Of a stretch of DNA of 64,000 nucleotides, positions 1,605 through 32,324 are shown in pieces. Numbering within the stretch: the stretch's first letter is position 1; every line of letters starts with the position of its first letter. The DNA comes from an uncultured Bacilli bacterium (GTDB lineage: Bacteria; Bacillota_I; Bacilli_A; RF39; UBA660), in contig CALVOY010000014.1 in assembly GCA_944350415.1 (NCBI GenBank), positions 262 to 64,261 on the forward strand. Reading direction: 5' to 3'. The notes under the pieces are model-generated. The model did no database searches. It had not been told where the DNA came from and saw only the letters and a list, made by a program, of their open reading frames with translations. The position numbers were made by a program, and so were the translations under genes.

Positions 1605-1681
1605 TGGTGTTCTCGGGCAGATTTGAACTGCCGACTTTCCCTTTAGGAGAGGGATACTCTATCCAACTGAGTTACGAGAAC
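1605..1681 (-). tRNA. tRNA-Arg (anticodon CCT)
   Basis: Reverse complement folds as cloverleaf: acceptor GTTCTCG/CGAGAAC, anticodon arm TCCCT-CTCCTAA-AGGGA, T-loop TTCAAAT, encoded CCA. Confidence 0.85.
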
Positions 1682-1736
1682 AGTTGTTGCCCATGTTATC
1701 GGGCTTGACAATGTGTCCTTAATCACAGCCCCTTAT

Positions 1737-1761
1737 TTAGGAGGCGATCGCTCTATCCTAC
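1737..1761. repeat. putative attL core: 25-bp exact copy of internal segment of the right-hand tRNA-Arg
   Basis: ttaggaggcgatcgctctatcctac identical at 1737-1761 and 32286-32310. Confidence 0.6.
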
Positions 1762-1801
1762 CGATATCAATATTATTGTAAAATAAGGATAAAATTAATA
1801 T

Positions 1802-1861
1802 TTTGTTGCCAATTTGTTGCCAATAATATTCATAATTTATTCACAACAAAATCAAGTTTTA
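1802..1861. repeat. ~60-bp direct repeat (left copy) containing two tandem 11-bp units ttgttgccaat; putative integrase arm-type sites
   Basis: First 24 bp exact and ~87% overall identity with 32108-32166. Confidence 0.55.
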
Positions 1862-2037
1862 TTCATAAATCGCAAGAGGTAATCACAATTCTTTTCTAAT
1901 AACCTATTATATTTTTCTAGATACTCTCTATTAAATTCAGTATCTTTTCCTTTTACATAGATTTCTTCTAGTAATTTATTTCTTTCTATTTCAATCTTTT
2001 TTATTAATTTGCAGTACTGCTCTACTATATTATTCAT
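1852..2037 (-). CDS. hypothetical phage protein (61 aa)
   Basis: ORF track; attL-proximal small gene. Confidence 0.3.
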   Translation of the reverse strand: MNNIVEQYCKLIKKIEIERNKLLEEIYVKGKDTEFNREYLEKYNRLLEKNCDYLLRFMNKT

Positions 2038-2061
2038 TGTATCACCATTAGTAGTATGTAC

Positions 2062-2229
2062 TTAAATAAATTCTTTTATTAAATCATAATTATGAATTTG
2101 AAATCTTATCAGTTCATCTATGATGATGAAATATTCTTTTTGTATTTCCTCTAGTGTAATACTAGAACATTTAATTTCAAATCTTTCTATAAATTTTTGT
2201 ACTTCTTTCTTATTTAATCTTTTCAACAT
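2062..2229 (-). CDS. hypothetical phage protein, likely start MLKRLNKK
   Basis: Strong RBS aaaggggag upstream of internal ATG. Confidence 0.35.
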   Translation of the reverse strand: MLKRLNKKEVQKFIERFEIKCSSITLEEIQKEYFIIIDELIRFQIHNYDLIKEFI

Positions 2230-2309
2230 AAAAACTCCCCTTTCTTGGCTGTATATAATAACATACAATCAAGAAAAAAGAGTTAGTTTTCGGTCGACAA
2301 ATTTCGACA

Positions 2310-2561
2310 TTATAGATAGTAATAATCATTCTCTTTTTCTTTTACTAAATCATCTACTGTTACTTCAAAAATATCAGTAATAATAAGTAACTTTTCCAAA
2401 GGTGGTACCCTTTTATTATTTTCGTAAAGACTAATAGTAGCTTTTGTTACATTTAATTGCACTGCTAATTCTTCTTGTGTCATTTCCTTTTTTAATCGAA
2501 GTTTCTTAATTCTTTCTCCCAAATGATTCATTTTGCTTCCCCTTCTTATTCTAACGCTCAT
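2310..2561 (-). CDS. XRE-family helix-turn-helix transcriptional regulator
   Basis: LRLKKEMTQEELAVQLNVTKATISLYENNKRVP classic Cro/CI-type HTH. Confidence 0.75.
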   Translation of the reverse strand: MSVRIRRGSKMNHLGERIKKLRLKKEMTQEELAVQLNVTKATISLYENNKRVPPLEKLLIITDIFEVTVDDLVKEKENDYYYL

Positions 2562-2632
2562 ATTATAACACTTTATTCAAAATAAAAAAAGCCTATCAAA
2601 TCCCCACAATCAGGAAAATGATAGGCTTTTAA

Positions 2633-29523: not shown

Positions 29524-29537
29524 CTCCTATTCTTTAT

Positions 29538-29624
29538 GTTAGTTTTGCTAACTTACAATTACAGTTTAAGTTATTTATACTAACTTGTCAACAGTTTTTT
29601 TATAAAAAAGTTATTTATGCTAAC
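29538..29624. promoter_or_regulatory. genetic-switch region with three 15-bp palindromic operators GTTAnTTTnnCTAAC
   Basis: gttagttttgctaac (29538-52), gttatttatactaac (29570-84), gttatttatgctaac (29610-24) between divergent regulators; TATAAT at 29661-66 and aaggaggg RBS before the repressor. Confidence 0.5.
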
Positions 29625-29681
29625 TTTTTTGTTGGTAAAATATTTAGAAAGTGGTATTATAATGATAAGGAGGGAGAAAAA

Positions 29682-30107
29682 TTGTTAAGGGATAATATCA
29701 AAACTGCAAGAATAAAAAAAGGATGGTCCCAACAAGATCTAGCTAATGAATATAATTTATTAGTTAAAAAAATTAATAAACAAAATAACTTAAATTTACA
29801 TACAATTGGTAGAACATCCATTACCCATTGGGAAACTGGCAGATATACACCAGAAGTTGAATCAATACCTGTTTTGTGTGAAATATTACAAATCAGTGCT
29901 GATAGTCTATTGGGTATTGATGAAATTATGAAAATTCAACAACATAGCCAATATGAAAAGAACATTTTACTAGATGATGGTACAAAAATTTCTATTCATA
30001 CAAATAAAAATTGGGAAGAATTAACTAAAGAAGAAAAAAAAGAAATAATGGATTCAATTATTGAAGAATCAGTAAAAATTAAAAAAGAAGAAAGTAAAAA
30101 AAACTAG
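29682..30107 (+). CDS. CI-like repressor, XRE-family HTH (TTG start)
   Basis: ARIKKGWSQQDLANEYNL...IGRTSITHWETGRYTPEVESIPVLCEILQISADSLLG. Confidence 0.8.
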   Translation: MLRDNIKTARIKKGWSQQDLANEYNLLVKKINKQNNLNLHTIGRTSITHWETGRYTPEVESIPVLCEILQISADSLLGIDEIMKIQQHSQYEKNILLDDGTKISIHTNKNWEELTKEEKKEIMDSIIEESVKIKKEESKKN

Positions 30108-30135
30108 CAGTATCGGTTTTTTACGAGGAGTTAAA

Positions 30136-30930
30136 GTGAAAAATAAATATTTAATATTATTATGCTGTATTTTTGGAGGATGGTTTGGTCTTCATTGCTT
30201 TATAGAAGGTAAAATTAAAAAAGGTATTTTATATTTATTTACAGCAGGTTTATTTTGTATTGGTTGGTTAGTTGATATAATTACTATTGCTTGTCAAAAT
30301 CAAGCAAAAACATTAGAAAATAAATCACAGAGTAAACATATTACATATAGATTTACGATTGATGAATGCGATAATAAAAAGAAAACATTGTATTCGCAAA
30401 CACGATCAAGAAAATATTATGATGATTATATTGTCTTTGATTTAGAAACTACTGGATTTAATCCAAAAGATGATGAAATTATTGAAATAGGTGCTTTAAA
30501 ATTTAAAAATGATAAATTAATTGATACATTTAATGTTTTAGTTAAACCAAAAGCTAGATTAACAAAAAATATTATTGAATTAACTGGAATTACAGAAAAT
30601 ATGCTTAAAAATTGTGATTCTATAGAGATAGCACTGCCCAAATTTATTGAATTTATTGAAAACTATCCTTTAGTAGCTCATAATAGTCCATTTGATTTAG
30701 GTTTTATAGAAGAAAATATAAAAAATTTAAATTTACCTATAATAAAAAATAAAAATATAGATACACTATATCTGTCTAGAATAAATATAAAGGATGTTCT
30801 AAATCATAAACTGGAAACACTAAAAATGCATTTTAATCTTAATTATTCTTCACATAGAGCAATTGAAGATTGTTATGTTACTAATTATATTTATCAATAT
30901 TGTAAAGACAAAAATACTGTTAAAAATTAA
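30136..30930 (+). CDS. TM2-domain membrane anchor fused to DEDDh (DnaQ/pol III epsilon-like) 3'-5' exonuclease; GTG start
   Basis: N-terminus LILLCCIFGGWFGLHCFIEGKIKKGILYLFTAGLFCIGWLVD = TM2 domain; exo motifs FDLETTG (I), AHNSPFDLGFI (II), HRAIEDCYVT (III). Confidence 0.75.
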   Translation: MKNKYLILLCCIFGGWFGLHCFIEGKIKKGILYLFTAGLFCIGWLVDIITIACQNQAKTLENKSQSKHITYRFTIDECDNKKKTLYSQTRSRKYYDDYIVFDLETTGFNPKDDEIIEIGALKFKNDKLIDTFNVLVKPKARLTKNIIELTGITENMLKNCDSIEIALPKFIEFIENYPLVAHNSPFDLGFIEENIKNLNLPIIKNKNIDTLYLSRINIKDVLNHKLETLKMHFNLNYSSHRAIEDCYVTNYIYQYCKDKNTVKN

Positions 30931-31075
30931 AAAAGAGCCTCTGCTGTAACAGAGACTCAACCAATAAAATTGGTACACAAATTAAATAAGAATGCCCGAC
31001 AAGACATCTATTCTTTTTGTGTACCCTAATTATAGCAAAATAAAATATTTTGTGCAATAAGGGGGAATTAAAAAA

Positions 31076-32107
31076 ATGGCAAAATATAAATCTAGAAAAT
31101 TACCTAATAGATACGGAACTATTAGCAAACTATCAGGTAATAGAAGAAAGCCTTATATTATTAAAGGATTTGAAGGCTATGATGATGACGGGAAAATAAT
31201 CAGGCCTATTATTGGATATGCTATAGACTATACAGAAGCTTTGGGTATATTATCTAATTATAATAAAGAACCTTATGATTTAGATTATGCAAATTTATCA
31301 ACTAAAGATTTATTTAATTTATGGTATGCTGATCTTTATAATAAAGTTAAAAGCAAAAAGCTAGGAGAAAAAAGGTATAAGGGATATAAAAGTACATTTG
31401 ATAAGTATTTTAAAACTATTCATAATCAAAAATATATATTATTAAAGACTAATGATATGCAAAAATGCTTTGATGAATGTATACATGGTTTTTCAACTAA
31501 AACTAATATGAAAATAATATTTAATGGACTTTTTGAAAAATCACAAGACCTTGAAATGCCAATCAAAAAAAATTTTGTTGAAAACTGCTATATTGGAGAA
31601 AAAGAAGATTCAGAAAAACATATTCCATTTTCTACACAAGAAATAAAAAAATTATGGAATAATATTGATAATACAGAAAATATAGATTTAATATTAATTA
31701 ATATTTATACAGGATGTAGACCAAATGAATTATTAGAACCTAATGAAATTCATTTTGAAGAAAGATATTTTATTGGTGGAAGTAAAACTGAAGCAGGTAG
31801 AAATAGAATAATTCCAATTCATGAAAAAATTGCTAATTTATTTAAAAAAAGATTTATTGATAGCGAGATTAATATCAACTATCGAAAATACTACAAATCC
31901 TTTCTTGCTGCAATGAATAAATTAGAAATGAATCACACGCCGTATGATTGCCGCCATACATTTGCAACAGAAGCCGATAATAGTAAACTAAATGACTTAT
32001 GTATCAAACTAATCATGGGGCATTCAGTACAAGATATTACAAAAGGAGTATATACTCATAAAACTCCACAACAATTAGTAGAAGAAGTGAATAAAATTGA
32101 CTTTTAA
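31076..32107 (+). CDS. int: phage tyrosine integrase
   Basis: TGCRPNEL...HTPYDCRHTFATEA...LIMGHSVQDITKGVYTH catalytic signature; adjacent to att repeats and tRNA. Confidence 0.9.
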   Translation: MAKYKSRKLPNRYGTISKLSGNRRKPYIIKGFEGYDDDGKIIRPIIGYAIDYTEALGILSNYNKEPYDLDYANLSTKDLFNLWYADLYNKVKSKKLGEKRYKGYKSTFDKYFKTIHNQKYILLKTNDMQKCFDECIHGFSTKTNMKIIFNGLFEKSQDLEMPIKKNFVENCYIGEKEDSEKHIPFSTQEIKKLWNNIDNTENIDLILINIYTGCRPNELLEPNEIHFEERYFIGGSKTEAGRNRIIPIHEKIANLFKKRFIDSEININYRKYYKSFLAAMNKLEMNHTPYDCRHTFATEADNSKLNDLCIKLIMGHSVQDITKGVYTHKTPQQLVEEVNKIDF

Positions 32108-32166
32108 TTTGTTGCCAATTTGTTGCCAATAGTATTCATAATCTAATCATAATAATATCAACTTTT
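32108..32166. repeat. ~60-bp direct repeat (right copy) with two tandem ttgttgccaat units; putative arm-type sites just after the int stop
   Basis: Matches 1802-1861. Confidence 0.55.
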
Positions 32167-32247
32167 ATAAAAATGAGTAAACTAAAAGAGTAATATTCAA
32201 TTACTCTTTTGCCATAAAACCCTTATAAAATAAAGGTAAAATCAACA

Positions 32248-32324
32248 TGGTGTTCCCGGCGAGAATCGAACTCACGACCTATCGCTTAGGAGGCGATCGC
32301 TCTATCCTACTGAGCTACGAGAAC
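32248..32324 (-). tRNA. tRNA-Arg (anticodon CCT), second isodecoder
   Basis: Cloverleaf: acceptor GTTCTCG/CGGGAAC, anticodon arm ATCGC-CTCCTAA-GCGAT, T-loop TTCGATT, CCA encoded. Confidence 0.85.
32286..32310. repeat. putative attR core inside the tRNA-Arg D/anticodon region
   Basis: 25-bp exact match to 1737-1761. Confidence 0.6.

Follow-up and report, generated by a model that had tools for sequence, protein, structure and literature searches.

A prophage and a small integrative element with a substitute tRNA probably share one tRNA-Arg(CCT) gene in an uncultured Bacilli-like bacterium

Gene content and landmarks of the locus

A 64-kb stretch of DNA from an uncultured, spore-forming Bacilli-like bacterium (28% G+C), called here the window (the whole stretch; all coordinates are positions in it), contains between positions 1605 and 32324 a prophage bracketed by two tRNA-Arg(CCT) genes, designated tRNA-L (left) and tRNA-R (right) (Table 1). 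Comparison with other contigs (L001–L044; L021 and L023 come from IMG/VR and L024 from a metagenome-assembled genome (MAG) of GTDB) makes it highly probable that this region consists of two unrelated integrative elements, the prophage and a small element named E2, inserted in tandem within one host gene, the single tRNA-Arg(CCT) gene located downstream of the comEC-HD genes. From a preliminary description of this DNA, the prophage, its arm-type repeats, the mobile origin of the left tRNA and the presence of a second island are retained, but the nature and the site of the attachment core that it proposed are not.

Both tRNA genes are called by ARAGORN on the minus strand, and their Rfam scores (Table 1) are to be read against a gathering threshold of 29 bits. 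They are indeed divergent (87% identity); the mismatches fall in the anticodon, T and acceptor stems. An exact 25-mer, TTAGGAGGCGATCGCTCTATCCTAC, occurs only twice in the 64 kb, once within tRNA-R and once just to the right of tRNA-L; none is expected in 100 shuffles, even with three mismatches allowed, and the match extends to 27 of 28 positions over 1737–1764 and 32286–32313. Within tRNA-R, it corresponds to linear positions 15–39, which start in the D-loop and end with the final base of the anticodon loop.

The DNA between the two copies is a genuine prophage, as had been proposed, with genes for the large terminase (TerL), portal, major capsid and tail proteins, including a tail-collar fibre, a repressor-like helix-turn-helix (HTH) protein, an RNase T-family exonuclease and a tyrosine integrase. 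From left to right, the gene order is lysis and HTH genes, then tail, head and terminase, then replication and early genes, and finally repressor, exonuclease and int. Both inner flanks carry the 11-mer TTGTTGCCAAT twice in tandem within a direct repeat of 64 nucleotides (nt) (1799–1862 and 32105–32168, 88% identity). The right tandem starts 1 nt past the stop codon of int, as stated in the preliminary description, and this stop codon lies 140 nt from tRNA-R. The 11-mer is enriched in the window, with 10 matches at no more than one mismatch versus 1.84 expected. To the right of the prophage are chromosomal genes encoding an HD-domain protein, ComEC and ComEA.

Table 1. Coordinates of the features of the locus (aa, amino acids; ORF, open reading frame).
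Feature	Positions	Strand	Remarks
Right-hand end of integrative element E2	1–1736		99.66% identity between window 1–1764 and L012 9452–11215
E2 ORF, 111 aa	57–392	+	Called in all E2 loci; without Pfam or PHROG match
E2 ORF, 177 aa	550–1083	+	Used as probe for E2 elsewhere; without family match
E2 ORF, 83 aa	1127–1378	-	Last gene before tRNA-L; distance to the tRNA always 226 nt in E2 loci
Three (G)GTGCC(A) repeats, candidate E2 arm-type sites	1483–1514	+	End-restricted distribution
Terminator-like hairpin and U-run downstream of tRNA-L	1557–1592	-	Fold z = -5.5
tRNA-L	1605–1681	-	Complete tRNA-Arg(CCT), putative E2-borne substitute for the split host gene; ARAGORN; Rfam 65.7 bits
E2 spacer, core to tRNA-L	1682–1736	-	55 nt, identical in all E2 loci; fold z = -0.96, not significant
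E2 crossover core TTAGGAGG	1737–1744		tRNA strand CCTCCTAA, anticodon loop and one stem base
Left 25-mer	1737–1761		Remnant of host or phage-borne tRNA-R 15–39, between E2 junction and phage left end
Prophage-specific DNA (about 30.5 kb)	1762–32247		Pfam: TerL, portal, capsid, tail collar, integrase, HTH
int-distal arm, TTGTTGCCAAT twice	1803–1824	+	Candidate arm-type sites
Prophage tyrosine integrase, 343 aa	31076–32107	+	PF00589
int-proximal arm, TTGTTGCCAAT twice	32109–32130	+	Candidate arm-type sites
Phage-supplied hairpin between int and tRNA-R	32184–32210		Fold z = -3.3
tRNA-R	32248–32324	-	Intact host tRNA-Arg(CCT); ARAGORN; Rfam 67.2 bits
Right 25-mer	32286–32310		tRNA-R positions 15–39
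Host HD-domain gene	32371–32877	-	Chromosomal flank; probe for the other states of the locus

E2, a small element that splits tRNA-Arg(CCT) genes and carries its own

The DNA to the left of position 1737 had been described as unlike a displaced tRNA 3' half. This is correct: it is the spacer of E2, an element of 9,889 bp whose integrase end lies outside the window, to the left. The same block was found in L011–L020, L024, L025 and L044 in different host contexts, in line with the suggestion that positions 1–1600 might belong to another island. tRNA-L, the 55-nt spacer and TTAGGAGG are identical everywhere and are then followed by the 5' half of a host-specific tRNA-Arg(CCT); tRNA-L itself shows no difference among the 11 E2 loci compared (100% identity) despite their different hosts, which agrees with the proposal that the left tRNA had been imported by a mobile element. 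Seven different 5' halves are present in the E2 loci, which makes eight with tRNA-R of this species. The integrase end is the mirror image, with a host-specific tRNA 3' half, TTAGGAGG and then E2 DNA. The only sequence common to both E2 junctions and to the eight host tRNAs is CCTCCTAA (8 bp, up to 10 bp in some hosts).

A deletion test covered four loci that span both ends of E2. When E2 (9,889 bp, or 11,095 bp in a copy bearing an insertion sequence (IS)) and one core copy are taken out, the two halves join in all four hosts into a tRNA-Arg(CCT) that is valid according to ARAGORN. In loci where both junctions are spanned (L012–L014, L016), ARAGORN detects no tRNA at either junction but only tRNA-L, and the junction sequences are unable to form an anticodon stem. 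E2 therefore appears to leave both halves of its target without function, as neither junction contains a tRNA.

The genes that flank E2 differ between contigs (MGDG synthase/LexA, DUF2130, M50 peptidase, SufC, HD/DUF3048 or HD/ComEC). E2 copies share 99.5–99.9% identity, versus about 70% for the comEC and HD genes of their hosts; the presence of such near-identical copies in hosts so distant points to a recent spread of E2 between species. An exact search with the 177-aa protein gave 89 index blocks, and the protein was read on 22 contigs; an exact-protein look-up of a 186-aa, TTG-start version of the E2 ORF returned no record. A scan of GTDB with the E2 junction pattern retrieved one MAG, labelled "uncultured Bacilli bacterium" (BRZ_II_bin7, L024).

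E2 encodes a 375-aa tyrosine integrase (PF14659 and PF00589; phrog_1 at E = 6e-73) that is present in every complete copy, two excisionase-family HTH proteins, an HTH_3 protein and about ten proteins of no assigned function. No virion or packaging gene was found among its 15 genes using Pfam, PHROGs, NCBIfam and PADLOC, and no cargo function beyond the integrase and the excisionase-family proteins was recognized using PHROGs, PADLOC and NCBIfam. On the strand shown here, GTGCCA occurs five times in the 9.9 kb of E2, always no more than 175 bp from one end or 250 bp from the other, a restriction that would be expected of arm-type sites. In the reconstructed phage-type attachment site (attP) of E2, the core CCTCCTAA lies between the two halves of an imperfect inverted repeat, CACACCCCT / AGGGGCTGTG, with which it shares its first two bases; the predicted attP junction reads CCCCTTATTTAGGAGGGGTGTGGTC. 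The block formed by tRNA-L and its terminator is 81% identical over 126 nt to the native tRNA and terminator of the empty site.

Some E2 copies and ends show further peculiarities. At the integrase-side end (L012 1306–1340), whose equivalent lies outside the window, the core borders directly on GGTGTGGTCTAAACTCATGGGAACACCA, after which comes a T-run. The final 10 bases of GGTGTGGTCTAAACTCATGGGAACACCA are those of the 3' end of tRNA-R and the final eight also match tRNA-L, on the opposite strand; this sequence may date from an earlier capture of a tRNA or serve as a half-site for the integrase. In L013 (4280–5385), an IS (rve/HTH_Tnp_1) is inserted in the E2 copy. In L011 (7172–9149), the left two-thirds of E2 are replaced by a restriction-modification/Abi cluster, beside an IS21-type element. 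In L024 (6867–7160), a host 5' half is followed by the E2 spacer, positions 1–39 of tRNA-L, a new spacer and a third, different tRNA-Arg(CCT). Judging from this order, the tRNA-L of E2 appears to have been split at its own anticodon loop by another element carrying a substitute tRNA. Substitute tRNAs can thus themselves be split and replaced.

States of the locus in the same species

Other contigs of the species were recovered among metagenome contigs that encode exactly the same HD protein as the window. Three states of the locus exist in this one species: empty, occupied by E2 alone, and occupied by both the phage and E2. The preliminary description had proposed a comparison with the uninfected state, and empty-site contigs were indeed obtained (L002, L003, L005, L010 and L036). 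They carry the HD gene, a tRNA identical to tRNA-R, a hairpin terminator and a gene for a 127-aa protein. Prophage DNA is absent from L002, L003, L005 and L010. The window matches the host sequence as far as approximately the 3' end of tRNA-R but no further, which places the right prophage junction within this gene or at its end.

The E2-only state is found in sample SAMEA6814389. One contig (L004) carries the HD gene, positions 1–39 of tRNA-R, where the left 25-mer sits in the window, and the E2 spacer; another (L029) carries the integrase end of E2, CCTCCTAA, positions 40–77 of tRNA-R, the native terminator and the 127-aa gene. A contig from another sample (L035) has the same junction between E2 and the tRNA 3' half as L029. 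The earlier statement that the displaced 3' half is missing therefore holds for the left end of the prophage (attL) but not for the locus, since this half is present at the far end of E2 in L029 and L035.

The composite junction (phage left end, positions 15–39, spacer, tRNA-L, E2) is also seen in two contigs from other samples, L025 and L044; L025 is 99.97% identical to the window over 9,094 bp without any gap. Samples with the composite include ENA ERZ24773330/BRZ_F and SAMEA6814650. The right prophage junction is reproduced in L001. As the same phage–E2 junction occurs in other samples, it is not an assembly artefact. No composite contig reaches the far end of E2, and the 3' half was located from the E2-only contigs; by analogy with these, the composite should also have positions 40–77 of tRNA-R at the far end of E2, outside the window.

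Several contigs suggest additional events at this locus. In L007 (2960–3142) and L009, positions 1–39 of tRNA-R are joined to a variant spacer of 67 nt that begins like that of E2 (ATAAGGGGCT) and is followed by a different substitute tRNA-Arg(CCT). In L030 and L031, upstream of the 127-aa gene, the end of another element is joined to positions 40–77 of tRNA-R at the same loop (...ctcttctCTCCTAAgcgatagg). Also upstream of the 127-aa gene, L032 (896 nt; positions 1–509) contains a tRNA-Arg(TCT) followed by a tRNA-Arg(CCT) whose 5' half (GTCCTCG...) is of another host type and whose 3' half is that of tRNA-R, with a C3-A70 mismatch in the acceptor stem; this second tRNA is either a chimera resulting from element traffic or a mis-assembly. 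Lastly, in L040 (1–60), unrelated DNA is joined to the middle of the native tRNA-R terminator (…acaaccTAAATAAAGAATTTATGAG), a further and different junction at this hot spot.

The prophage and its attachment site

tRNA-R does not differ from the tRNA of the empty site (100% identity), and phage DNA follows it directly. The phage therefore supplies the tRNA sequence from its crossover point to position 77. In other words, positions 1–14 of tRNA-R are host DNA, positions 15–39 are ambiguous, and positions 40–77 now come from the phage end. On the left side, homology runs from position 39 back to position 15; position 14 is a mismatch, with A in the host and G in the phage arm, positions 13 and 12 match, and phage DNA follows. 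Judging from both junctions, the attP of the phage must carry positions 15–77 of the tRNA (63 bp, or 66 bp for positions 12–77 with one mismatch). Although this homology is long, the prophage is an ordinary temperate phage that reconstitutes its target tRNA. The hairpin supplied by the phage between int and tRNA-R is likely a bidirectional terminator.

These junctions account for the three oddities raised in the preliminary description, namely the limits of the 25-mer, the nature of the DNA on its left, which is the E2 spacer, and the second isodecoder, which is the substitute tRNA of E2. The 25-mer ends at position 39 because the E2 junction lies exactly there, and it starts at position 15 because the tRNA copy borne by the phage has its 5' limit there; it is what the two junctions leave between them, that is positions 15–39 of tRNA-R. 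The proposed layout of core and arms thus survives in part only: the 11-mers are good candidates for arm-type sites, but the 25-mer is not the phage's own core. A location of tRNA-L on the phage was rejected, as tRNA-L belongs to E2 and is identical across E2 loci; phage attachment at the tRNA 3' end or in the terminator was also considered and rejected. More generally, where one tRNA harbours two elements, direct repeats can be a misleading guide to prophage boundaries, as the length of the repeat then reflects two junctions.

The integrases of the phage and of E2 are unrelated outside the catalytic motif. An exact search of IMG/VR for the tandem 22-mer of the phage arms gave three contigs. 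In one of them (L021, 13418–13612), three copies of the 11-mer, 140 nt and two further copies directly follow the stop codon of an integrase gene; another (L023, 10454–10475) encodes the same integrase and has a two-copy array at the contig end. The interval between the arms of L021 is attP-like, with a core unrelated to tRNA-Arg. The L021 integrase is only 32% identical overall to that of the window, but about two-thirds of some 27 N-terminal residues are identical (K-x-K-x-R-x-LPN-x-x-GTIS-x-LSG-x-RRKPY). A conserved N-terminus together with a shared 11-mer is what would be expected if an N-terminal arm-binding domain recognizes the 11-mer. The reading of the 11-mers as candidate arm-type sites on both arms thus appears well supported, and the phage integrase would be of the heterobivalent type; L021 and L023 should help to establish which arm sites this integrase subfamily recognizes.

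Other searches brought no close relative. Megablast of both prophage ends against the INPHARED phages gave tRNA-sized matches or nothing, and a scan of IMG/VR recovered no relatives of the phage integrase; neither this integrase nor the tail fibre had an entry in exact-protein look-ups. tblastn of the phage and E2 integrases against the phage collection retrieved only relatives at no more than 34% identity, so that no known attachment sites can be transferred to them.

Two other genes of the prophage deserve mention. A second tyrosine recombinase (21220–22095, minus strand, 291 aa, PF00589, E = 1e-16) is flanked by a 130-nt direct repeat (20727–20856 and 22118–22247, 81% identity); it could be involved in dimer resolution, belong to an inserted module or act on an invertible segment. 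Between the repressor-like gene and int, an ORF (30136–30930, plus strand) encodes an N-terminal TM2 membrane domain fused to an RNase T/DnaQ-type exonuclease, an unusual architecture for a gene of a lysogeny module.

Model, order of insertion and alternative readings

Taken together, these data lead to the following model. E2 would recombine with the host tRNA-Arg(CCT) gene through the anticodon-loop core, leaving both halves non-functional, and would install an entire tRNA-Arg(CCT) gene that has a terminator of its own and runs in the direction of the disrupted gene. The phage would then recombine with the remnant of the gene (positions 1–39) and thereby rebuild a full tRNA-R. Its integration would leave an intact tRNA-R at the int-proximal junction, followed by the phage terminator hairpin; in the predicted attP of the phage, positions 40–77 are continuous with the phage left end (CGACCTATCGCTTAGGAGGCGATCGCTCTATCCTACCGATATC). 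Both integrases are presumably active, and tRNA-L is presumably expressed and compensates for the lost gene. The order of the two insertions is likewise inferred; if E2 was first, the phage crossover must lie within positions 15–39.

Several observations weigh against parts of this model. The sequences compared all come from metagenome contigs, of which many are short. No phage-only lysogen turned up, and the full duplication of positions 15–77 at attL is deduced. Exact-pattern scans detected neither an excised attP contig of the phage (left end in IMG/VR, attL/attP junction in JGI) nor an excised E2 (attP junction in viral sets, int-side junction in JGI metagenomes). In the window, the phage lies between tRNA-L and the promoter of the host tRNA; consensus scans for promoters and terminators performed no better than on shuffled sequences and disclosed no convincing promoter of tRNA-L itself. 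Finally, the count of one tRNA-Arg(CCT) in the empty state is confined to this locus.

The anatomy described above could also result from the same two insertions in the reverse order. In this case, the phage would have entered tRNA-R first, and E2 would then have entered the anticodon loop of the displaced 15–77 copy at the far end of the phage. The final structure would be identical. Moreover, elements of the E2 type tolerate varied sequences around the loop, and one non-chromosomal copy, the tRNA-L inside E2, has been hit as well (L024). Tyrosine integrases are reportedly known, from the work of Williams in 2002, to use three sublocations within tRNA genes (anticodon loop, T-loop and 3' end); we know of no D-region sublocation for these enzymes, which counts for the reverse order. 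If the phage crossover lies 3' of position 39, in the T-loop or at the 3' end, only the reverse order is possible, and the attL of the prophage would be partly lost, with no precise excision of the prophage. About 35 contigs of the locus included none in the phage-only state, whereas two samples showed the E2-only state, the one on which the preference for E2 first rests, although this sampling is small and thin. In addition, E2 adjoins the phage left end in the three contigs that reach it. The entry of E2 before the phage is thus somewhat favoured, and the reverse order is a serious but less probable alternative.

A reading in which a single prophage has a complete 25-bp core in the D/anticodon half of the tRNA, the left tRNA being a mere neighbour, is very improbable. 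The 25-mer is exact, phage DNA lies on its inner side and arm-type repeats flank it, as would be expected for such a core. However, a 25-bp core predicts that positions 1–39 of the tRNA are followed by phage DNA at the junction close to the HD gene, where a full tRNA is seen instead, and the last base of the 25-mer on the 3' side is exactly that of the E2 junction seen in more than 10 loci devoid of the phage.

Two further readings are extremely improbable. That tRNA-L and window 1–1700 are native chromosome containing a paralogous isodecoder would fit the likeness of its terminator to the native one, but same-species empty-site contigs have one tRNA-Arg(CCT) and none of window 1–1736, and the block is 99.5–99.9% identical in hosts whose flanks are about 70% identical or unrelated. 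That the phage–E2 junction is an assembly chimera formed through shared tRNA-like sequence can practically be set aside: breaks and mis-joins at this tRNA are common in metagenome assemblies (L006, L008 and L034 terminate in its anticodon loop), but the gap-free junction is the same in two other samples (L025 and L044) and the right junction is found in L001.

With E2 preceding the phage, a broader reading may be proposed, to which, with all its parts taken jointly, slightly less than an even chance is given. E2 and its relatives (the L007/L009 variant and the nested element of L024) may form a family of small non-phage "tRNA-swap" elements of gut or environmental Bacilli. These elements would retire the resident gene, install their own and leave stacked fossil 5' halves, thus providing a route for horizontal turnover of tRNA genes. 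They would move between species in spite of differing tRNA bodies because their sole sequence requirement is the universally conserved anticodon loop of tRNA-Arg(CCT). In the window, the fossil 5' half of 39 nt that E2 left behind would then have served the phage as bacterial attachment site (attB), and the phage would have repaired the gene by means of its 15–77 copy.

Relation to known systems

In the tRNA-dependent lysogeny of actinobacteriophages, a tyrosine integrase acts on a core of 8–17 bp in a host tRNA gene, the tRNA is not rebuilt, and the phage bears a complementing cognate tRNA; this has been described for Fionnbharth/K4, cluster L, Gaia and Gordonia CQ2/DL phages (Guerrero-Bustamante & Hatfull 2024, PMC10865867). 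Lj965, a prophage of Lactobacillus johnsonii, does not rebuild its target tRNA and encodes cognate tRNA genes, and could be a case outside Actinobacteria (PMC10865867, PMC3714127). A rhizobial case of such integration has also been mentioned (PMC12429752). Experimental demonstration is so far limited to actinobacteriophages, with bioinformatic reports in rhizobial prophages.

E2 has its own integrase, a short core within a tRNA gene, no rebuilt tRNA and a carried tRNA-Arg(CCT), and is not a temperate phage. By its sequence features, it thus appears to work like the members of this family without being a phage member of it. As in these phages, the integrase is of the tyrosine type, arm-type repeats (candidate ones in E2) flank a short core (8 bp in E2, versus 8–17 bp), no functional tRNA remains at the junctions and the carried tRNA has the anticodon of the broken gene. 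Unlike them, E2 is a 9.9-kb element without virion genes, from uncultured low-G+C Bacilli, that targets tRNA-Arg(CCT), carries its substitute tRNA at a distance of 55 bp from the core and in the direction of the broken gene, and uses at least eight target tRNA sequences. Lj965, which was compared by description only, is likewise from a Firmicute and carries tRNA that may complement the disrupted target, but it is a full prophage with four tRNA genes. The integration logic is thus already known, and what is new in E2 is the host group and the type of element. Integration without tRNA repair, together with a carried cognate tRNA, now extends to a small non-phage element of low-G+C Bacilli. Possible additional points of note are the target tolerance of a core restricted to the anticodon loop, the serial replacement in L024 and a repair by a phage of the tRNA split by E2.

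With respect to sublocation, E2 belongs to the anticodon-loop class, as its core is the loop itself and an inverted repeat flanks this core in the reconstructed attP. The 8-bp core lets one element, with copies more than 99.5% identical, enter at least eight different tRNA-Arg(CCT) genes. An integrase that requires no more than the anticodon loop of tRNA-Arg(CCT), associated with a self-contained substitute tRNA, would be an attractive broad-host integration module for Firmicutes that are hard to engineer.

The 30.5-kb prophage resembles temperate phages whose heterobivalent integrases act at tRNA genes, such as mycobacteriophages L5 and Boilgate, Lactobacillus phage mv4 and P22-type phages, in having int beside the attachment site, candidate arm-type repeats on both sides, an attP that carries the 3' part of the tRNA and an intact tRNA at the junction. 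It differs from these canonical tRNA phages by its long deduced homology of 63–66 bp, from the D-loop on, and by its distal junction, which E2 abuts. No displaced tRNA copy extending through the 3' end is present there: only positions 15–39 are found, positions 40–77 being replaced by the E2 spacer.

Tandem accretion of elements at one attachment site is known for integrative and conjugative elements and cis-mobilizable elements in streptococci and for tandem arrays of SGI1. As in these arrays, two elements lie side by side in one target in the window, with hybrid attachment sites between them. In contrast, the integrases involved here are unrelated and follow different crossover logics in the same tRNA.

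Other tRNA genes of the window

Two isolated tRNA genes, Glu(CTC) at 44280–44356 and Gln(CTG) at 50138–50213, lie outside the main tRNA cluster of the window (57.7–59.0 kb). They have other rare anticodons starting with C and could be integration targets as well, although no insertion is present at either of them here.

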